Part shown: one piece after another, positions 4,329-31,013 of the stretch
Layout: each line of letters starts with the position of its first letter
Numbering within the stretch: the stretch's first letter is position 1
Source: an uncultured Pseudomonadales bacterium
GTDB taxonomy: Bacteria > Patescibacteriota > Microgenomatia > UBA1400 > PJMF01
Assembly: GCA_964620965.1 (NCBI GenBank)
Contig: CAZUHV010000003.1
Span: 162,093-226,092, forward strand
Reading direction: 5' to 3'
DNA: 64,000 nucleotides
The notes under the pieces: model-generated
Told to the model about the DNA's origin: nothing
Database searches by the model: none
Seen by the model: the letters and a program-made list of their open reading frames with translations, nothing else
Translations under genes and position numbers: made by a program

Positions 4329-4811
4329 ATGAAAACAGCACGAACAGCAGTTTTAGTTAAGCCAGATGGCTTACAAAGAGGATTGATTGGAGAAATTATC
4401 TCAAGATTCGAGAGAAAAGGTCTTAAATTGATTGGCCTTAAAATGCTTAACATGTCTGATGAACAACTCTCAGATTGGTATGCAGAACATAAAGACAAAA
4501 GTTTCTTTGGAGATCTCAAGTCTTTCATGGGTTCTATGCCAATTGTTGCTATGGTCTGGGAAGGTATTGATGCAGTTCCAGTCGTAAGAAAACTCGTTGG
4601 AACTACTCTTGGTAGAGAAGCAGAAGGTGGATCTATTCGAGGTGACTTTGGAATGAGCCAACAGTTTAATCTTATTCATGCCTCAGCAAATGGGGATGAT
4701 GCAGAACGAGAAATCAAGATAGTTTTTGAAGATGCAGAACTTTTTGACTATGTAGGCGTTATGGACACTGTTATCTATGCAGACTATGAGCTTGCTAAGA
4801 TGAAAGAGTAA
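4329..4811 (+). CDS. ndk: Nucleoside diphosphate kinase
   Basis: NDK fold motifs (VLVKPDG, NLIHASAN active-site His region). AAAAGGAAA RBS. Confidence 0.9.
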   Translation: MKTARTAVLVKPDGLQRGLIGEIISRFERKGLKLIGLKMLNMSDEQLSDWYAEHKDKSFFGDLKSFMGSMPIVAMVWEGIDAVPVVRKLVGTTLGREAEGGSIRGDFGMSQQFNLIHASANGDDAEREIKIVFEDAELFDYVGVMDTVIYADYELAKMKE

Positions 4812-4855
4812 TAAATGTTGCTAAGTTTTTTAACTTGCTAAATTTAGTTTTAAAA

Positions 4856-4890
4856 TCAAAAATCGCTCGAGTAAAATTGGGCGATTTTTT
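4856..4890. terminator. Bidirectional rho-independent terminator between ndk and tRNA-Arg
   Basis: AAAATCGC-loop-GCGATTTT hairpin flanked by an A-run and a T-run. Confidence 0.6.
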
Positions 4891-4909
4891 GTATTTCTTA
4901 CAAAATTTG

Positions 4910-4981
4910 TGCCCCCACCAGGAATCGAACCTGAAGTTGCCGCTTAGGAGGCGGCCGTTTTATCCATTGAACTATAGGGGC
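4910..4981 (-). tRNA. tRNA-Arg (anticodon CCT)
   Basis: The reverse complement folds as a cloverleaf: GCCCCTA acceptor, GTTCGATTC T-arm, and anticodon loop CUCCUAA giving CCT. CCA is not encoded. Confidence 0.85.
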
Positions 4982-5155
4982 GTTATAGCTAGTGTTTTCT
5001 CAAACAGTTTTATTACACATTGCGGAATCACTTTTTGCAATGCGATAATAGCTGTACGCTACAAGGTATTCTACCAAACATGCCTGGCATATTAAATACA
5101 CATAGGTTTTTTTAGCTTATGCTGATACTATGTGCAGTGGTCAGAAGGGGAGAAT

Positions 5156-6376
5156 ATGGTTCGTACAACGAAAAAAACTGTAAGAAAACCTAAAAAAGTG
5201 GGTGGGGCTGTTCCTTCAAAAAATCAAAAAAAAAGCCCTAATAAAAAAGTTCCTGCAAACGCCCGTATCAAGGCACAGACTCCAAAAGATAGAACTCAAC
5301 TTAATTCAATTTACCTTTCTTCAGTGTTTGTAAGGCCAGATGAAACGCCTTTTTGGGAATTTTTGAAGAACGCGAACATTCCATTTTTTAAGAAACATTT
5401 CCCATTTTTAACAAACAACCAGATTCCTCAAATAAAGCAGGTTTTTGATTTTTCTGACTATATACGCATCGGATCGCGTGGAGAGGCTCTTTCGTACCTA
5501 TACAACGGCTTTGGCAAGGCATTAAACTATGTTGGTCCAGTCTTAGATCTTGAGTTAGAGCATGGTTTTAATGATCACACTGATCGCCACACGCTTTGGG
5601 TAACTCAGACAGGTGTTGAGCTGTTGCAAAGAGCTGGGATTTCTTATGATGGATCTGGGCATTATGATCCGTTAACAGAAACAATGATGACTTTAGTTGG
5701 TATGACCCATGATTTGGGTAATTTTTTCTCTAGAAAAGAACATTCAACATATAGCGCTTGGTTGCTTACCAGGCTATTTTCAAACACTAAAAAACATCCA
5801 AAAGAGTTTGAAACTGTATTACATTCAATTTTATTTCACGAAGAACCAACTTTAGTGAATCTGGGAATGAATATCGAGGACGGCACACCACTACAGTGGG
5901 CTTTGGTTGCTGCAGATAAGATGCATGTTGGCAGAGATAGAGTGGGAGGGCGTTCATTTGAGAGTGGAATTGCTAAAGGTGCACTCGAGGATGATATTCA
6001 TATTGTTTTAAATGCGTTAGTCGTTCGATCTAGCTGGCATTTGGGAGTTCGTAAGTTTGTTTGGAACCTTGATTTTAGTGTGGATCAACTTGAGGAAAAA
6101 TTTGAAAGTTTTACAACAGGCAATCAAAGGTTATATCTTCCAAAGTTTTTCCAGAAAATGTTTATTAGTAAGGGAACCTTATATCGAGAGTCATTCTCGA
6201 AATTATTTACTGATATTTATAAAAATCGTATTGAATTGGCGGCGAAATGTGTGTTTTTACTATTTCCTCATATTTCTGAATTTGTTGTCGAGTTGTCAGA
6301 CAATGATACAAGGGCAAAAGTGGGTAGTGGCAGGATGACAGTGGTGACTTTAACGAGAAAACAAGTATTTCTTTAG
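5156..6376 (+). CDS. Hypothetical protein with a Lys-rich N-terminal tail and a possible HD-domain phosphohydrolase core
   Basis: Start moved to MVRTTKK, which has AGGGGAG 5 nt upstream. H...DH...HD (MTHDLG) spacing resembles an HD domain but is unverified. Confidence 0.45.
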   Translation: MVRTTKKTVRKPKKVGGAVPSKNQKKSPNKKVPANARIKAQTPKDRTQLNSIYLSSVFVRPDETPFWEFLKNANIPFFKKHFPFLTNNQIPQIKQVFDFSDYIRIGSRGEALSYLYNGFGKALNYVGPVLDLELEHGFNDHTDRHTLWVTQTGVELLQRAGISYDGSGHYDPLTETMMTLVGMTHDLGNFFSRKEHSTYSAWLLTRLFSNTKKHPKEFETVLHSILFHEEPTLVNLGMNIEDGTPLQWALVAADKMHVGRDRVGGRSFESGIAKGALEDDIHIVLNALVVRSSWHLGVRKFVWNLDFSVDQLEEKFESFTTGNQRLYLPKFFQKMFISKGTLYRESFSKLFTDIYKNRIELAAKCVFLLFPHISEFVVELSDNDTRAKVGSGRMTVVTLTRKQVFL

Positions 6377-15527: not shown

Positions 15528-17198
15528 TTACTCAATTTCAGTAGCATTAACAACTTCGCCTCCGCCGTGTTCATCCATTCCTACAAGATAAGCATTAGTG
15601 TAATCAATATTTTTTTCATCTAACCAAAGTTGAGCTATTTTTCTTAATTGATTCATAGTAACTCGACGATTTTGGTTTGCGGTAATAAAACCTATGCATT
15701 TATTATCTTTTATCACTGCAAAGTTAATAGCAATGTTGTGAACACTATTTTCTCTAGTTGGTATGTCATCAAAGGTATTAATATTAATGAGAGAAACTGG
15801 TCTTAAGATATTTTGACAAGATAAATATTCTTCTAGTTGGTTATTTGTATACTTTTCTGTGAGGATTGATATTAGTTGGGTATCACTCATAATTTGTATA
15901 TTTCCTTGAGTATCAAAGGTTACTATTGTGTGATAGGCAGGATAATTGTAGTTTTCTATTGGAATTCCACCCCATTGATCTTTGAGTTTAGAAACAAATA
16001 ACTTGAAAAAGTAATCTTTTTCTTGGGAAGAAAGCTTTTGGTATTTTGGAAGCATGTCTACTGACCAGCAGGCATACGAATTTGCAAAACATATAAATTC
16101 AATTAGGCTCATTGTTTTTTCTGCAACAACGCTTCCTCCCCAACCCATTGAAGGAATAGCTGTCCAAGAAGGAACTGTAGTAAATAGTGGATCTCCCCTT
16201 TTTCTATCATGAAATGAAAGAAACAACGGCCCTGTATGCATGTAGTTAACTGGAGAAGGGATTCCATGAGGATCTGTCATTACAGAGTCGGATGGTGGTG
16301 AAGGAAAGCCAAGTACTGGCTCATTATATCTGTTATGAGAATGGTAGGATGCTTTTTTTCCTTTTCTTTCTATTAGCTTTCTCAAAAATACCCCAACTTG
16401 ATACCCAATTACATCTTTTCCGTCTTGTGGGTAGGCTAGGGCAGAGTTGAGTTCTAATTTAAAATCACTATCAGTTGGTTCATAAATAAGAAGTTCGTCA
16501 AAAGCATTTTCTTTATTGGTTTCTATCCAACTGACGGGAATTGACGAAAGTGTGTAGCAAGGTTCAGTATGAATGTTTTTTTGTTGAGAAAAGTTTATAT
16601 TTATTGAGTGCTCAGAATATGTAGATGTTTCTTGTCTTTTTTTTGACTGTAGCATTTCTCCGATAAAAGCTCTCAGTGGGTCATAACTTGCAAGTAGAGA
16701 TTTTATGTCATCATATTTTGCCGTTCTTGCTCCTGTATTAGCAAGAATGCCTAAAATATTAAATTTTGAGCCAAAGACAATTGCAGCACTCCCTACAAGA
16801 GAAACTATGGAAGCTAGTTTTATAAACTGTCTTCTAGACATAGTCGTTGTTTCAAGTGTTTCTTTCCCTGATTTACCATCTAAAATTTTTCGTATTACCA
16901 AATTTAGTACTCCTGAACCAATGAGTGTTGCGAACCTATCATCTAGTGAGTTAATTCCGTTATGTGTGTAAATATTGGTAATTTTAAGGTGGGGAAGGTC
17001 ATGGATATGTACGTTGGGAAAAGGAAAAGTAATTGAAATTTCTGCTTGGTTGTCTGACAGAATTTGCACTTTAGGTTCTTGAAATTGAGTTACTATTTCA
17101 ATATTTGAGTCTTGTTGAGTGCGAGTTTTTTCTTGCGTATTCACAGTGTCGATATCAAAACCAGTAATCGCTAGAATTCTTTCTCTCATTGAAGGCAT
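15528..17198 (-). CDS. Hypothetical exported or membrane-anchored protein with a twin-arginine-like signal
   Basis: The track ORF runs to 17303, but a terminator hairpin lies inside its first 30 codons, so the start probably moves to MPSM (17198) or to MSRRQFIKLASIVSLVGSAAIVFGS (16841). Confidence 0.45.
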   Translation of the reverse strand: MPSMRERILAITGFDIDTVNTQEKTRTQQDSNIEIVTQFQEPKVQILSDNQAEISITFPFPNVHIHDLPHLKITNIYTHNGINSLDDRFATLIGSGVLNLVIRKILDGKSGKETLETTTMSRRQFIKLASIVSLVGSAAIVFGSKFNILGILANTGARTAKYDDIKSLLASYDPLRAFIGEMLQSKKRQETSTYSEHSININFSQQKNIHTEPCYTLSSIPVSWIETNKENAFDELLIYEPTDSDFKLELNSALAYPQDGKDVIGYQVGVFLRKLIERKGKKASYHSHNRYNEPVLGFPSPPSDSVMTDPHGIPSPVNYMHTGPLFLSFHDRKRGDPLFTTVPSWTAIPSMGWGGSVVAEKTMSLIEFICFANSYACWSVDMLPKYQKLSSQEKDYFFKLFVSKLKDQWGGIPIENYNYPAYHTIVTFDTQGNIQIMSDTQLISILTEKYTNNQLEEYLSCQNILRPVSLININTFDDIPTRENSVHNIAINFAVIKDNKCIGFITANQNRRVTMNQLRKIAQLWLDEKNIDYTNAYLVGMDEHGGGEVVNATEIE

Positions 17199-17213
17199 AA
17201 ACTCAGTATAGCA

Positions 17214-17242
17214 AAAACCCCACTCATTGAGTGGGGTTTTAG
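17214..17242 (-). terminator. Rho-independent terminator downstream of rplL
   Basis: AAAACCCCACTCATTGAGTGGGGTTTT hairpin with T-runs on both strands. Confidence 0.65.
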
Positions 17243-17336
17243 TTTTTATTTTAAGTTGAACTACGCAAAGTTTTTTAATAGTGCTTTGCAAATTTTGTAT
17301 CAACTCCTTTTTCTTCGAAAAAGAGAGGATCCAAAA

Positions 17337-18719: not shown

Positions 18720-19373
18720 TTAAACCAAGCCAGGTCTTAGAACACTAGGCGCAGATTCTAGTCTTGAGGGAGTTCTTTCCTTATTTGGTTTTCCTGCAAT
18801 CCAATAAATCAGTGCCGTTGGGATACCGTCCTCTGAGGTTCCTACGACATGTACTTGAATTTCCTTATCTGCAAACTGTGGAACTGTAACGCCGTGTGAA
18901 CTTAAAAAGGCGACCAAATCATTTACTGGAATACTCAGAGATCGTTTTATACTTTCGTTTTTTTTGATTTTACTCGCAACTCTTTTTGAAAAAAATGTGT
19001 TTGGACTTTGAATGATCGAGGCTGAAAGTGGGTTACTTTCGTCTATAGGAAAAAATTTGTTGATTTCGACGAGCAATTCTTGGACAGATGAGAGTGGCCG
19101 TAAATCAATTCGTGCAGAATCTTGAGCTCCGTACTTGATTGCATAGAGTAATACAGATGCAACTCTGTTGTGCGCAGTCAGTTGAGAGGTTCTGGCTAAA
19201 AACTCTTGTTTGAGCTTTTTTGCACGACTCATTTGTCCTAAAGTTTCTTGTTTCAACTTGAAAAATAGATTTACAAGAAAAGCCATATTCCTATGAGTTT
19301 CTAATGAACGTATTTTGTCATTTGGAGTTTTTTCTGGTTTCCCCCCACTGATTTCCTCTGGTGTTGTTTTCAT
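18720..19373 (-). CDS. Hypothetical protein (217 aa) just upstream of the rplJ leader
   Basis: ORF only; no motif recognised. Confidence 0.5.
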   Translation of the reverse strand: MKTTPEEISGGKPEKTPNDKIRSLETHRNMAFLVNLFFKLKQETLGQMSRAKKLKQEFLARTSQLTAHNRVASVLLYAIKYGAQDSARIDLRPLSSVQELLVEINKFFPIDESNPLSASIIQSPNTFFSKRVASKIKKNESIKRSLSIPVNDLVAFLSSHGVTVPQFADKEIQVHVVGTSEDGIPTALIYWIAGKPNKERTPSRLESAPSVLRPGLV

Positions 19374-19498
19374 TTTTTGTGTGTATGTACAAATTACATA
19401 TTGTAATATTTCTGGTTTTGTTTTACAGTATACACCAATGACAAGTAATTTTTATTGGCTTACCAGCAACCACATTTGCCGCTTCCAAATTAAGATGG

Positions 19499-19574
19499 GA
19501 GAGGTTTGTGCAGCAGTAAGTTAAAAAAAATTACAGTCTAAGCGCAAACCTCTCAAGCACACGAGAGGTTTTTT
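19499..19574 (+). promoter_or_regulatory. Mutually exclusive hairpins (GAGAGG / CCTCTC / GAGAGG) ending in a terminator
   Basis: A 13-bp stem (GAGAGGTTTGTGC / GCGCAAACCTCTC) shares the CCTCTC segment with a downstream CCTCTC-loop-GAGAGG-TTTTTT terminator. Confidence 0.4.
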
Positions 19575-19643
19575 AATATCTGTAGAGTGTTTTTTTGCAC
19601 AGTACTGTCGACTTGGTTTTTAAGTTTTCTTAAAAATATCGAA

Positions 19644-19694
19644 GGAGAAGTGTATGCAACTAGGTTTTTCGCGAAAACCTAAAAAGAAAAATGC
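19644..19694 (+). CDS. Micro-ORF encoding a 16-aa Lys-rich peptide (MQLGFSRKPKKKNAKK)
   Basis: GAAGGAGAAG Shine-Dalgarno 4 nt before the ATG; not in the ORF track because of the length cutoff. Confidence 0.2.
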
Positions 19695-19851
19695 TAAGAA
19701 ATAACAAGCTATAGTTTTCTTATGCAAAGGAGCACTCAGTTCAGATAGGTGGATGAAAAAGTAAAGATGTTTTGCACAGGTAAAAATCAGAGATTTTCTT
19801 AAACCAAAGTAGTAATAAAAGTGTGCTAGGAAGCAAACAGGAGGTGTTTGT

Positions 19852-20031
19852 ATGAAATTAGAAGAAACTTCTGCCCCCTACAGCAGAGAAACCCTTGAAA
19901 GGTTAATGAACGTGCTTAAGCAATATGAGGTTCTTCCTTGGCTTAATCCAGTCACTAATGCCATTAGCATTAAGGATTTTAATTTCGCCCAACATCGTCC
20001 CTTTACTCAAGGTCCCTGTCGAGAGGAATAA
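19852..20031 (+). CDS. Small ORF (59 aa) with a consensus SD
   Basis: CAGGAGGTG lies 6 nt upstream of the ATG; ORF MKLEETSAPYSRETLERLMNVLKQYEVLPWLNP...; sits 1 codon below the track cutoff. Confidence 0.4.
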   Translation: MKLEETSAPYSRETLERLMNVLKQYEVLPWLNPVTNAISIKDFNFAQHRPFTQGPCREE

Positions 20032-20047
20032 TGCTCAAATTGTTTTA

Positions 20048-20389
20048 TGGTATAATCCTCGAGATGGATAAAAACCTCACAACCACTACCACCACAACTA
20101 CAATCCCTGTTTAGGGTGTGGCTGATAGTGTTTGAAAACGAATCAGGAAGCCCCCTAAACAGGGGGCTTTTTTCTTTCATGCCCTGAATTTTTGAATAAA
20201 ATTCAGCTGGCATGAAATATGCAAAGCGCAGGACTCGATCTTTTTTGTTTAAAAAAGTCGCAGGTACGAAAGATGCAAAGCATGAAACAGATATACAAGA
20301 TAAAAAGTGGGAAGCAAAAAGTACATAAGAAACAAAATCGCTTCCCACAGACAAGAACAAACTATTATAATAAGGAAAAGAAAGACAAT
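20048..20389 (+). promoter_or_regulatory. thrS promoter and structured leader with terminator/antiterminator (attenuator)
   Basis: Extended -10 TGGTATAAT (20048-20056). CCCTGTTTAGGG (20104-20115) is exactly complementary to the 3' side of the 5' stem, the loop and the 5' side of the 3' stem of the terminator GCCCCCTAAACAGGGGGC-TTTTTT (20149-20172). A second hairpin lies at 20177-20213. Confidence 0.5.
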
Positions 20390-22159
20390 ATGAACGAACA
20401 ACATAATCAAGCAGAACTAGAAAAACTACGACATTCTGCAGCACATTTACTTGCGGCTGCAGTTTTAGAGTTATATCCAGAGGCTAAACTAACGATCGGG
20501 CCAGCAACAGAAGATGGGTTTTATTACGATTTTGATTTTGGGGATATTCAAATCAGCGATAAAGATTTTCAAGCAATAGAAAAAAAGATGAGGTTTCTTA
20601 GTAAAAGTTGGGGAAGTTTTGAGCGCCAAGAAATCTCTTCTCAAGAAGCATTAGAGCGTTACAAAGATAACGAATATAAAACAGAACTGGTTACAGACAT
20701 AGTTCAAGCTGGTGAACAGATTTCACTCTATAAATCTGGCAATTTTACTGATCTTTGTAGAGGTGGTCACATAGAAAAGCCAGCTGTGAGCTTGAAATAC
20801 TTTAAGTTGCTTTCAGTTGCAGGTGCCTACTGGCGTGGCAGTGAAGAAAATAAAATGCTGACTCGTATTTATGGAACAGCGTTTTTTAGTCAAGAAGAAC
20901 TTGATGCTTTTATCAAAATGAAAGAGGAAGCAAAAAACAGAGATCATAGAAAACTCGGTAAAGAGCTTGGTCTTTTTGTCTTTTCTGATACAGTCGGTAA
21001 AGGATTACCTCTATGGACAGCAAAGGGGGCAACGGTTCGTCGAGAACTTGAACGTTTTGTAACTGATGAAGAAATCAGAAGAGGTTACCAACATGTTATG
21101 ACTCCGGATATTGCTAATCTAGACCTCTACAAAAAATCTGGTCACTATCCGTATTACAAAGAAAGCATGTACGCGCCAATTCAAATTGAAGAAGAGGAAT
21201 ATATGCTTCGTCCAATGACTTGCCCACATCACTTTGAGTTATATAACGCACATCCACACTCATATAGGGAGCTTCCAATGCGTATTGCAGAACTCGCAAA
21301 GTTGTATCGTTTTGAGCGTTCTGGAGAGCTTTCTGGATTGATTAGGGTTCGAAGTTTTTGTTTAGCAGATTCACATATTGTTTGTATGAAATCTCAAGCA
21401 AAAGATGAGATTAACGGAGTTTTGGATTTAATTGAGTTTATGGGTAAAACATTTGGTTTAGAACCAGGCAAAGATCTTTCATACCGCTTATCTCTTGGAG
21501 ACAGAGCTGATGAAAAGAAATATTACAAAGATGACGCGTCATGGGATTTTGCAGAAAATGTTTTGCGTGAAGTTTTGGAAGAACGTGGTTCAAAATTTGT
21601 TGAAGCAGAACAAGAAGCTGCGTTTTATGGTCCAAAAATTGACGTTCAAATGAGAAATGTAAATGGCAAAGAAGACACTGCTTTTACTGTTCAGTATGAT
21701 TTTGTGATGCCAAAACGTTTTGATCTTAAGTATGTTAACGAACATGGTGAAGTTGAACAGCCAATCGTGATTCATCGTTCTTCTATTGGCGCAATCGAAA
21801 GAACACTCGCATTTTTAATAGAAAAATTTGCTGGAAAATTCCCGGTTTGGCTTGCTCCAACCCAAGTGAAAATCTTGCCTATATCAGATAAATTTAATGC
21901 TTATGCACAAGAACTCTATTCAAAGATGGTTCGGGAAAACATTAGGGTAGAAGTTGATGACAGATCAGAGCGTTTGCAAGCAAAAATTCGTGACGCGCAA
22001 ATGGAAAAAGTTCCATATATGCTAGTTGTTGGTGAAAAAGAAGCTGCAGAAGCTACCGTTACTGTTCGAAAACGAGATGGCAAAAACCAAGATGTTCAAC
22101 GAGTTGACGAGTTTATTGAATCAGTTAAGCAACAGATACGAGAGAGAAGCATAGAATAA
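20390..22159 (+). CDS. thrS: Threonyl-tRNA synthetase lacking the N-terminal TGS domain
   Basis: HSAAHLLAAAV editing-domain motif, class II catalytic core, C-terminal anticodon-binding domain. The real start is MNEQHN with AAGGAA upstream; the first 57 codons of the track ORF are leader. Confidence 0.9.
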   Translation: MNEQHNQAELEKLRHSAAHLLAAAVLELYPEAKLTIGPATEDGFYYDFDFGDIQISDKDFQAIEKKMRFLSKSWGSFERQEISSQEALERYKDNEYKTELVTDIVQAGEQISLYKSGNFTDLCRGGHIEKPAVSLKYFKLLSVAGAYWRGSEENKMLTRIYGTAFFSQEELDAFIKMKEEAKNRDHRKLGKELGLFVFSDTVGKGLPLWTAKGATVRRELERFVTDEEIRRGYQHVMTPDIANLDLYKKSGHYPYYKESMYAPIQIEEEEYMLRPMTCPHHFELYNAHPHSYRELPMRIAELAKLYRFERSGELSGLIRVRSFCLADSHIVCMKSQAKDEINGVLDLIEFMGKTFGLEPGKDLSYRLSLGDRADEKKYYKDDASWDFAENVLREVLEERGSKFVEAEQEAAFYGPKIDVQMRNVNGKEDTAFTVQYDFVMPKRFDLKYVNEHGEVEQPIVIHRSSIGAIERTLAFLIEKFAGKFPVWLAPTQVKILPISDKFNAYAQELYSKMVRENIRVEVDDRSERLQAKIRDAQMEKVPYMLVVGEKEAAEATVTVRKRDGKNQDVQRVDEFIESVKQQIRERSIE

Positions 22160-30594: not shown

Positions 30595-30666
30595 GCCCAG
30601 ATAGTTCAGTGGCAGAACGCTTTCTTGGTAAGAAAGAGGTCGAGGGTCCGATTCCCTCTCTGGGCT
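30595..30666 (+). tRNA. tRNA-Thr (anticodon GGT)
   Basis: Cloverleaf: GCCCAGA acceptor, anticodon loop UUGGUAA, GGTCCGATTCC T-arm. Confidence 0.85.
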
Positions 30667-30734
30667 CAAGGTATCTTAATGATATAATAATTGCGCATGA
30701 AATTGTGTGTGAACTACATTTAACAAGTAAATAA

Positions 30735-30816
30735 GCCGAGTTACCCAAGCGGTCAACGGGGGCAGACTGTAAATCTGCTGACATAGTCTTCGGAGGTTCG
30801 AATCCTTCACTCGGCA
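30735..30816 (+). tRNA. tRNA-Tyr (anticodon GTA), type II with a long variable arm
   Basis: GCCGAGT acceptor, anticodon loop CUGUAAA, 13-nt variable arm, GGTTCGAATCC T-arm. Confidence 0.85.
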
Positions 30817-30820
30817 CAAT

Positions 30821-30893
30821 GCCACCTTAGCTCATTCGGTAGAGCATCTGTTTTGTAACCAGAAGGTGCGGGGTTCGAATCCCCGAGGTGGCT
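30821..30893 (+). tRNA. tRNA-Thr (anticodon TGT)
   Basis: GCCACCT acceptor, anticodon loop UUUGUAA (one mismatch at the 31-39 pair), GGTTCGAATCC T-arm. It starts 4 nt after tRNA-Tyr. Confidence 0.7.
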
Positions 30894-31013
30894 CAATCGA
30901 TTGGTTTTTAATAAGCGTTAGTTACAACGCCTAAAATTCTAAAAAAATTTGAACTCGCCCACATTGACAAGTTCTGATATAATACCAGTCTTGATTAAAA
31001 GAAAGAAATTACT

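Follow-up and report, generated by a model that had tools for sequence, protein, structure and literature searches.

Two predicted serial attenuators and a conserved small-protein gene upstream of thrS in a Patescibacteria genome

What the long gap upstream of thrS, the threonyl-tRNA synthetase (ThrRS) gene, contains is the question raised by the 64-kb stretch of contig CAZUHV010000003.1 analysed here (the window, to which all coordinates refer unless a locus number is given). The host genome is of the Patescibacteria, Microgenomates type, and its closest ThrRS relatives (59-86% identical) come from metagenome-assembled genomes (MAGs) labelled Patescibacteria, Levybacteria, Gottesmanbacteria and others. 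An earlier note on this DNA had described an 850-bp low-coding region upstream of thrS; the gap itself is there but its size was understated, for it extends over 1,016 nucleotides (nt) between long open reading frames (ORFs), from 19374 to 20389, with a 217-amino-acid (aa) ORF on the minus strand (18720-19373) on one side and thrS on the other. The gap probably constitutes a single regulatory and coding unit on the plus strand, in which two transcription attenuators of the classical leader-peptide type stand in series together with a gene for a conserved small protein, here called ORF59. The comparison covered 21 ORF59-carrying loci with genomic context, 18 loci for the first attenuator (leader 1) and 19 for the second (the Thr leader). 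A metagenome scan contributed only three true loci; a further candidate from it, L095, was a high-GC aminotransferase and was rejected as a false positive.

The Thr element (20064-20173), which is very probably a leader-peptide transcription attenuator, comprises the following features, listed with the gene that it would regulate.

20048-20056, plus strand: predicted extended -10 element P2, TGGTATAAT, ending 7 nt before the Thr leader ATG
20064-20114, plus strand: Thr leader peptide ORF, MDKNLTTTTTTTTIPV followed by a stop, 16 codons (ATG GAT AAA AAC CTC (ACN)x8 ATC CCT GTT TAG), with the Thr codons at 20079-20102
20105-20130, plus strand: region 2, consisting of CCCTGTTTAGGG at 20105-20116, which includes the stop codon, and GGTGTGGCTGATAGTG at 20115-20130
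20150-20173, plus strand: intrinsic terminator T2, GCCCCC-TAAACA-GGGGGC followed by T6
20390-22159, plus strand: thrS (threonyl-tRNA synthetase, 589 aa), the regulated gene, with its true start at ATG 20390

The Thr leader begins 17 nt past the end of the region treated in the earlier note and was overlooked there. Within this element GGTGTGGCTGATAGTG is complementary to the Thr codons and pairs back with them, and CCCTGTTTAGGG pairs as an antiterminator with 20153-20164 (CCCTAAACAGGG inside T2). An ORF with a run of 4-8 Thr codons, followed by a hairpin and a T-run, is present upstream of thrS in 19 loci of very different sequence (examples of the peptides are MHKKLIATTTTTTIPV, MKIFTTTTTSC, MMNAIRTTTTTTS and MKQQFAATTTTTAL), and in all 19 the hairpin and T-run follow the stop codon by 26-39 nt. 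The effect of a ribosome on these RNAs was modelled by blocking a 28-nt footprint around each A-site codon and then computing the probability of the terminator hairpin, P(terminator). In every one of the 19 loci the modelled minimum P(terminator) was at most 0.06 with the ribosome stalled on early Thr codons, and P(terminator) was at least 0.96 with the ribosome at the stop codon. When region 2 was shuffled, P(terminator) dropped below 0.1 in 10 of 190 controls, as compared with 19 of 19 real sequences. Tandem codons for the cognate amino acid, an intrinsic terminator and, in silico, an antiterminator that depends on ribosome position are thus all found in the Thr element.

In all 20 Thr-type leaders (the 19 together with that of L033, described below) the start codon lacks a Shine-Dalgarno sequence and follows a -10 box at a distance of 6-12 nt, which makes translation of the Thr leader peptide from a leaderless transcript probable; in the window the peptide is probably also translated from RNA that reads through from ORF59. 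A -10 box is located 4-13 nt upstream of all 38 leader start codons, none of which has a Shine-Dalgarno sequence, and such a box accompanies 22% of random ATGs. P2 is conserved whether coding or non-coding sequence underlies it. A longer form of the Thr leader, starting at ATG 20031 and overlapping the ORF59 stop (TAATG), is not conserved in L083 or L001, and the short form was taken as the functional one. In L083 about 40 nt separate T2 from the thrS ATG, and the attenuator is therefore the main gate to thrS in that locus. The thrS orthologues carry the Pfam domains tRNA_SAD, tRNA-synt_2b and HGTP_anticodon; a mechanical ORF list had placed the start of the window gene at 20219.

At the other end of the gap lies leader 1 (19438-19574), which is quite likely a cis-acting attenuator and for which the following features were delineated.

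19401-19429, plus strand: predicted promoter P1, with -35 TTGTAA at 19401-19406, a 17-nt spacer and -10 TACAGT at 19424-19429, the latter ending 8 nt before the uORF1 ATG
19438-19524, plus strand: uORF1, 28 codons, MTSNFYWLTSNHICRFQIKMGEVCAAVS followed by a stop; no Shine-Dalgarno sequence, probably leaderless; Thr codon 9 (ACC) at 19462-19464
19440-19538, plus strand: rod hairpin (pairing 1:2, the anti-antiterminator), with a nearly invariant apical part, CGCTTCCAAATTAAGATGGGAGAGGTTTGT
19499-19554, plus strand: antiterminator (pairing 2:3), arm 1 GAGAGGTTTGTGC at 19499-19511 with arm 2 GCGCAAACCTCTC at 19542-19554, 13 pairs including one G-U
19546-19574, plus strand: intrinsic terminator T1 (pairing 3:4), AAACCTCTC at 19546-19554, loop AAGCACAC and GAGAGGTTT at 19563-19571, with T6 at 19569-19574

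The earlier note had pointed out a GAGAGG/CCTCTC/GAGAGG arrangement that could fold either as a long hairpin or as a short terminator followed by U6. This switch is real and is kept in 18 related loci, and the evidence supports its hairpins as a genuine regulatory switch, namely the antiterminator and terminator of an attenuator. Two components had been overlooked or were not part of that description: uORF1, which overlaps the switch and starts without a Shine-Dalgarno sequence, and the 99-nt rod, a third alternative structure that brings together the 5' and 3' halves of uORF1. For the leader RNA (19434-19577) the folding energy is -46.7 kcal/mol (z = -6.45; none of 200 shuffles did as well), the rod being present in the minimum-energy fold, and the duplex of arm 1 with arm 2 has a z of -6.8 in the window.

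A covariance model recovers leader 1 at 114-171 bits in 15 loci, in each case directly upstream of an ORF59 homologue, and visual inspection added diverged versions from L096, L097 and L098. The P1 motif (ATTGnA, 17 nt, TAnnnT) has the same spacing in 18 loci, its -10 box ending 4-11 nt before an ATG that lacks a Shine-Dalgarno sequence. In these 18 loci uORF1 is open over 25-28 codons, and its stop always falls 6-18 nt after arm 1. The frame is preserved through in-frame 3-nt insertions or deletions (L081, L084, L090) and despite a different sequence in L003, L096 and L098. The arm 1:arm 2 duplex is worth -13 to -24 kcal/mol in all 18 loci, where the terminator is kept too, and the arms differ yet remain complementary in the divergent lineages (CCTCCT/AGGAGG in L003, GCCTCCG/CGGAGGC in L096 and GCCCCCCTC/GAGGGGGGC in L098), to which the double compensatory changes are confined. 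On alignment A6, 80.7% of cells pair for the rod and terminator, compared with 44-52% when partners are slid; the apical helices of the rod pair in 93% of cells and the T1 stem in 100%, and T1 shows the compensatory CCTCCT/AGGAGG change in L003. The covariation score of rod plus terminator was reached by 2 of 500 shuffles, which provides modest support. The distance from the terminator to the ORF59 start is only 110 nt in L002 and 36 nt in L003, which argues that leader 1 is a cis-regulator of ORF59. Both T1 and T2 were picked up by a consensus scan, and they are the only intergenic terminators in the 64-kb window that have no same-strand gene before them; a scan of the window for further attenuator-type terminators found none besides these two.

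The third component of the unit is the small-protein gene itself.

19838-20031, plus strand: ORF59 with its Shine-Dalgarno sequence CAGGAGGTG (19838-19846), coding 19852-20031, a conserved 59-residue small protein

The proposal in the earlier note that this 59-codon ORF encodes a real small protein is borne out, and there is little doubt that ORF59 is a real gene. It has 11 close homologues, and a profile search extends the family to 52 proteins at an E of 4.2e-10 or better; in a search of 50%-identity cluster representatives, 17 of the 20 matches listed were small proteins of 52-85 aa. Family members, of about 50-85 residues, share the motif PYS[RK]..L..L...L......W..P.TN.I..K, which the window protein also carries, and variable columns are distributed over codon positions 1, 2 and 3 as 29, 23 and 42, which is a coding pattern. 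ORF59 lies upstream of thrS in 20 of the 21 carrier loci, the exception being L098, a Woesebacteria contig. The family is confined to a narrow clade: among 80 thrS loci of species representatives, only L001-L003 carry it. No match was found in Pfam, NCBIfam or PDB sequence profiles, and an AlphaFold2 model (pLDDT 71) with one helix and a beta-hairpin gave no significant fold match in a Foldseek search. Additional small ORFs with no counterpart in the window adjoin the ORF59 homologue in L094 (1247-1468, before it; 73 aa) and L003 (5558-5797, after it; 79 aa), and these two are weakly alike (35% over 46 aa, E = 0.09 against the compared loci). Other small ORFs, unrelated to ORF59 by eye, are found between the Thr attenuator and thrS (L008:5511-6000, L030:5748-6000, L044:2829-3120), a slot into which small genes appear to have been recruited repeatedly.

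Taken together, these components suggest the following course of events. Transcripts from P1 would begin at or within a few bases of the uORF1 ATG, and the leader 1 RNA could adopt three mutually exclusive pairings: the rod (1:2), the antiterminator (2:3) and the terminator T1 (3:4). With no ribosome present, or with a ribosome at the uORF1 stop, T1 would form and transcription would end at 19574, while a ribosome held in the 5' half of uORF1 would leave arm 1 free for arm 2 and so permit read-through; the leading guess for the cause of such a hold is a shortage of charged tRNA-Thr. In read-through RNA a structured spacer would be followed by ORF59, and next in order would be the leaderless 16-codon ORF with its eight consecutive Thr codons, which is probably transcribed from an extended -10 promoter of its own as well. 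If charged tRNA-Thr is scarce, the ribosome would stall on the early Thr codons, CCCTGTTTAGGG would pair with the terminator sequence and polymerase would enter thrS. If Thr-tRNA is plentiful, the ribosome would reach the TAG codon and cover CCCTGTTTAGGG, T2 would form and thrS would not be transcribed.

For leader 1, the mechanism is favoured only by a small measure: a conserved, apparently translatable short ORF lies over the 5' switch strand, the three alternative pairings are present, and on balance the element would seem to be ribosome-mediated. In the free RNA P(terminator) is 0.95; with the ribosome at codons 11-16 it drops to 0.00-0.13, and with the ribosome at codons 17-29, including the stop, it is 0.74 at codon 17 and 0.95 from codon 18 onwards. 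A stall window in the 5' half gives modelled antitermination in most leader 1 loci. Threonine, as the signal to which this leader responds, can be put forward only tentatively. It is the only residue that occurs in codons 6-14 of all 11 lineages, where it makes up 17.5% compared with a background of 6.2%, counts that stem from related and not independent sequences. His, Cys, Ile and Asn were considered and rejected, as each is missing from the stall region in at least one lineage (at position 12, L096 has Asn in place of His). An alternative frame with its stop in the apical loop, like the Thr leader, was also rejected, since frames checked by hand gave no conserved start and no Thr codons. 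A related leader, a weak match to the covariance model, occurs directly ahead of the thrS operon in L033; its Thr codons fall within the modelled window, and it is closely preceded by a tRNA gene.

L033:5510-5920: one leader only, MIRLPQTCCTTPIPQREVL, containing Thr and Cys codons, its stop codon lying beyond arm 1 like that of leader 1; between it and thrS lies a 76-aa ORF that is unrelated to ORF59

Several observations weigh against this account of the two attenuators. Both the promoters and initiation on leaderless transcripts are predicted. Some relatives can dispense with the Thr leader, which has decayed in L002 and is missing from L097 and L099. A TATAAT box at 20366-20371, about 20 nt before the thrS ATG (TATAAT also in L001 and L002, TATACT in L003), may either serve as an independent promoter of thrS, so that both attenuators are bypassed, or act as an additional regulatory element. 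Within the set aligned by the covariance model the antiterminator pairs at 91.8% with no double changes, and column-wise covariation is nil because the arms barely vary there. In leader 1 there is no run of one codon within the stall window, only 1-4 scattered Thr codons; the modelled antitermination window of the window sequence is narrow (codons 11-16, N H I C R F), a ribosome at Thr codon 9 still gives a P(terminator) of about 0.74, and L085, L091, L081 and L098 show little or no modelled antitermination. Finally, a 30-nt apical block of the rod is invariant even at third codon positions, which is not explained by the ribosome model and points to a partner acting at the RNA level.

These last features would be expected if leader 1 were instead factor-dependent, that is, if the apical stem-loop were bound by some protein (ORF59 and ThrRS are candidates), RNA or small ligand that shifted the balance of rod, antiterminator and terminator, with uORF1 being incidental. 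Such a mechanism is rather unlikely, yet it would account for the block CGCTTCCAAATTAAGATGGGAGAGGTTTGT, in which, the 8-nt loop included, no codon position varies between loci that have otherwise diverged, as well as for the missing codon run and the stall windows that are narrow or absent in several loci. It is also consistent with the substitution pattern of uORF1, in which variable columns fall at codon positions 1, 2 and 3 as 14, 17 and 15 and synonymous and non-synonymous changes number 123 and 813; the lack of a coding pattern, together with the invariant third positions of the apical block, suggests that selection acts on the open frame and the RNA pairings and not on the peptide sequence. 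However, an incidental uORF1 is difficult to reconcile with an ORF length, in-frame indels and stop position that are maintained even in L003, L096 and L098 despite their different sequences, or with a promoter-to-ATG geometry equal to that of the Thr leader. Moreover, the invariant loop is lost in L096 and L098, the element has no Rfam match, and ORF59 has no recognisable RNA-binding fold. A doubtful extension is that leader 1, the spacer and ORF59 form a previously undescribed module tied to thrS in which ORF59 acts in trans, for example by binding the rod apical stem-loop and feeding back on attenuation, or by partnering or modulating ThrRS. If true, ORF59, instead of being a passenger gene behind an ordinary leader, would represent a novel type of attenuation protein restricted to a single clade of the candidate phyla radiation (CPR).

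There is a slimmer chance that the first element is a free-standing small gene, transcribed from P1 and invariably terminated at T1, whose RNA of about 135 nt functions as a small RNA (sRNA) or codes for a 28-residue peptide, with ORF59 being transcribed from a separate promoter in the spacer such as the conserved GCTATAGT box at 19708-19715. The strength of the terminator in free RNA and the conservation of this TATAGT-like box in the closest relatives as well as in L094 and L099 are in keeping with such an arrangement, but the T1 of L003 is too close to the start of the ORF59 homologue to leave room for a further promoter. In addition, the conserved complementarity of arm 1 and arm 2 exceeds what a terminator stem needs and is sensible only with regulated read-through, and the peptide shows no protein-type constraint. 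The unannotated sRNA locus suggested in the earlier note thus has, as an account of the first element, a lower probability than attenuation in cis, given the short distance from terminator to ORF59 homologue in L003.

In the part of the gap between T1 and ORF59 the following features are located.

19576-19747, plus strand: structured spacer domain with a closing helix of ATATCTG..GAGTGTTTTTTTGC (19576-19598) and GCAAAGGAGCACTC..CAGATA (19724-19747)
19654-19704, plus strand: 16-codon ORF MQLGFSRKPKKKNAKK after the Shine-Dalgarno sequence GAAGGAGAAG (19641-19650), judged not to be a gene

This domain is common to the closest relatives and absent in L002 and L003. RNAalifold on 11 loci supports the long closing helix and inner hairpins with 38 pairs, in 9 of which both partners have changed, and the closing helix is also present in the minimum-energy fold of the window sequence itself. 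The 16-codon ORF covers a hairpin, TAGGTTTT-TCGCG-AAAACCTA (19661-19681), whose stem shows compensating changes in L083, L084, L089, L092, L090 and L081 according to the author's reading of the alignment, the hairpin being outside the RNAalifold consensus. In the closest relatives the start, frame and length of the ORF vary from 3 to 49 codons: its equivalent has 3 codons in L084, 7 in the L001 group and none in L090, and at its position L089 has no ORF, the 49-codon ORF given there by the gene caller being in another frame. The ORF and its Shine-Dalgarno sequence, flagged in the earlier note, do exist, but the peptide is not conserved and the Shine-Dalgarno sequence is found in the window only; the lysine-rich composition of the peptide is due to an A-rich tract, and the 16-codon ORF is concluded to be RNA and not a gene.

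It is accordingly very unlikely that the small proteins or leader peptides at work in this locus are the 16-codon and 59-codon ORFs with their strong Shine-Dalgarno sequences. Both ORFs and their ribosome-binding sequences exist, ORF59 is real, and Lys-rich ORFs are found at a similar place in L083, L081 and L092. However, L084, L089, L090 and the L001 group do not keep the 16-codon ORF intact and in place, and its sequence appears to be held by the RNA hairpin, while ORF59 evolves as a folded protein and has neither a single-amino-acid codon bias nor an overlapping terminator switch. Neither ORF is thus a leader peptide, a role that falls instead to the ORFs without Shine-Dalgarno sequences at 19438-19524 and 20064-20114. 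That a larger gene decayed here, a possibility that the earlier note had named, and left a gap with chance hairpins can be dismissed, with nothing in its favour except the unusual gap length: stops fill all six frames of the spacer, the small ORFs of relatives match nothing there, and the order and structure of the elements are conserved across L001-L003 (ThrRS 74-86% identical) and in more distant loci of the ORF59 family.

The spacer between T2 and thrS measures 214 nt in the window (20177-20389) and is absent in the close relative L083. It contains a hairpin, TCATGCC..GGCATGA (20177-20215), the inner stem of which has a compensating change in L001, and a repeated ATGCAAAGC.

Leader-peptide attenuators are well known from enterobacteria, where they include thrL of the thr operon, trpL, hisL and pheM upstream of pheST, the last of these controlling the cognate aminoacyl-tRNA synthetase. 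The Thr element shares with them a short ORF of tandem sensed codons, the pairings 1:2, 2:3 and 3:4, an intrinsic terminator and a stop codon placed so that a ribosome completing the ORF blocks the antiterminator, and it shares with pheM-pheST the control of a cognate synthetase gene. It differs from them in having no sequence homology, no Shine-Dalgarno sequence and a start codon 6-12 nt after the -10 box (probably leaderless), and in its Patescibacteria host, with a second attenuator and a small gene upstream in series. The best Rfam matches in the gap, Phe_leader (RF01859) at 32.0 bits and Thr_leader (RF00506) at 29.1 bits (both E = 0.0044 in a 1.3-kb search), lie far below the gathering score of 55 bits for these families, and the Thr element is therefore an analogue and not a homologous family member. 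A scan of the gap by E-value gave only sub-threshold leader and terminator matches, and a scan of the whole window at Rfam gathering thresholds for known RNAs (T-box, 6S, SRP and others) gave only tRNAs.

Elsewhere thrS is controlled by T-box leaders in Firmicutes and by a translational operator in E. coli, which regulate the same gene and likewise ultimately sense the supply of charged tRNA-Thr. Here, in contrast, sensing would operate through translation of Thr codons and not through binding of tRNA or ThrRS. No T-box was matched by Rfam at E up to 10 in 19200-20500, and inspection, with no dedicated model, revealed no hairpin of the E. coli operator type with an NGU anticodon-like 7-nt loop near ATG 20390; the 24 nt before this ATG are unstructured and A-rich.

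The nearest parallels to the leaderless design come from Streptomyces lividans, for which leaderless leader peptides have been proposed before aminoacyl-tRNA synthetase genes (thrL-thrS, leuL2-leuS, trpL2-trpS and alaL-alaS), the thrL there having two Thr codons only and no clear U-rich terminator (PMC8079986). Leaderless short ORFs before synthetase genes including thrS, read as attenuators, are thus common to both, whereas the present element has a run of 4-8 Thr codons, a canonical terminator and a consistent switch model in 19 loci, and the two are unrelated in sequence. For leader 1, a likeness exists to the ermC-type leader, which senses a slowdown of translation without amino-acid specificity and controls translation (PMC2965389): in both a short ORF without a codon run overlaps alternative hairpins and the site of ribosome pausing sets (for leader 1, would set) the outcome. 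Leader 1 differs from it in its transcription terminator and in preceding a small protein gene and thrS instead of a resistance gene, and no arrest motif was recognised in it. Cases are documented in which control of one synthetase gene has switched between T-box and leader peptide (PMC2965389). A search of the literature available to the analysis found no paper that joins Patescibacteria with attenuation and leader peptides, and the Thr element is best viewed as a known kind of attenuation in a new phylum, with leader 1 being of the same kind.

Several features of the surroundings were recorded. Further upstream on the minus strand lie rplJ-rplL, and the same neighbourhood recurs in relatives. 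Neither the 217-aa ORF (no Pfam or NCBIfam match) nor a 591-aa ORF at 15528-17303 on the minus strand (no Pfam match) could be assigned to a family. An ORF of similar size (144-237 aa) divergent from leader 1 occurs at the position of the 217-aa ORF in L081, L083, L087, L089, L091 and L096, a correspondence noted from position and size; in the window the promoter of the 217-aa ORF must share the 19374-19437 region with P1. In several relatives the ORF59-thrS unit is flanked by PIN, PhdYeFM, MazE and AbiEii genes.

L096:4714-5195; L097:61-2137 and 4681-5195; L089:271-510: toxin-antitoxin or abortive-infection flanking genes

About 10 kb downstream of thrS, at 30595-30894, the window contains both tRNA-Thr genes (anticodons GGT and TGT) together with a tRNA-Tyr gene, and between them the two anticodons can decode ACA, ACC and ACT, the Thr codons that occur in the Thr leader. 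Public MAG records L001, L004, L005, L007-L009, L012, L013 and others belong to the Patescibacteria by ThrRS similarity and gene context; they are titled "uncultured Pseudomonadales", "Gammaproteobacteria" or "Dehalococcoidales", which look like taxonomic mislabels in the deposited assemblies.

In a related CPR genome, a predicted leaderless Ile-rich ORF, MRNLYLIIISFVLFKDEV (L035:61-230), is found in a rod, antiterminator and terminator arrangement upstream of an unidentified gene, and its modelled antitermination window coincides with the codons I-I-S-F-V. It may therefore be that these bacteria apply the leaderless attenuator design to further amino acids.

To our knowledge, almost nothing is known of gene regulation in the Patescibacteria (candidate phyla radiation). 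These organisms have small genomes and largely lack amino-acid biosynthesis, and how tRNA charging is matched to amino-acid supply is therefore a real question for them. For annotation, the locus indicates that long "empty" gaps in compact genomes can hold dense small ORFs and RNA switches that gene callers overlook. For threonine it offers a testable answer, in which thrS is attenuated through a leaderless leader peptide, a design shared by at least 19 related genomes, and it also yields a second conserved attenuator, a structured 5'-UTR (untranslated region) domain and a new small-protein family that is genetically linked to thrS.

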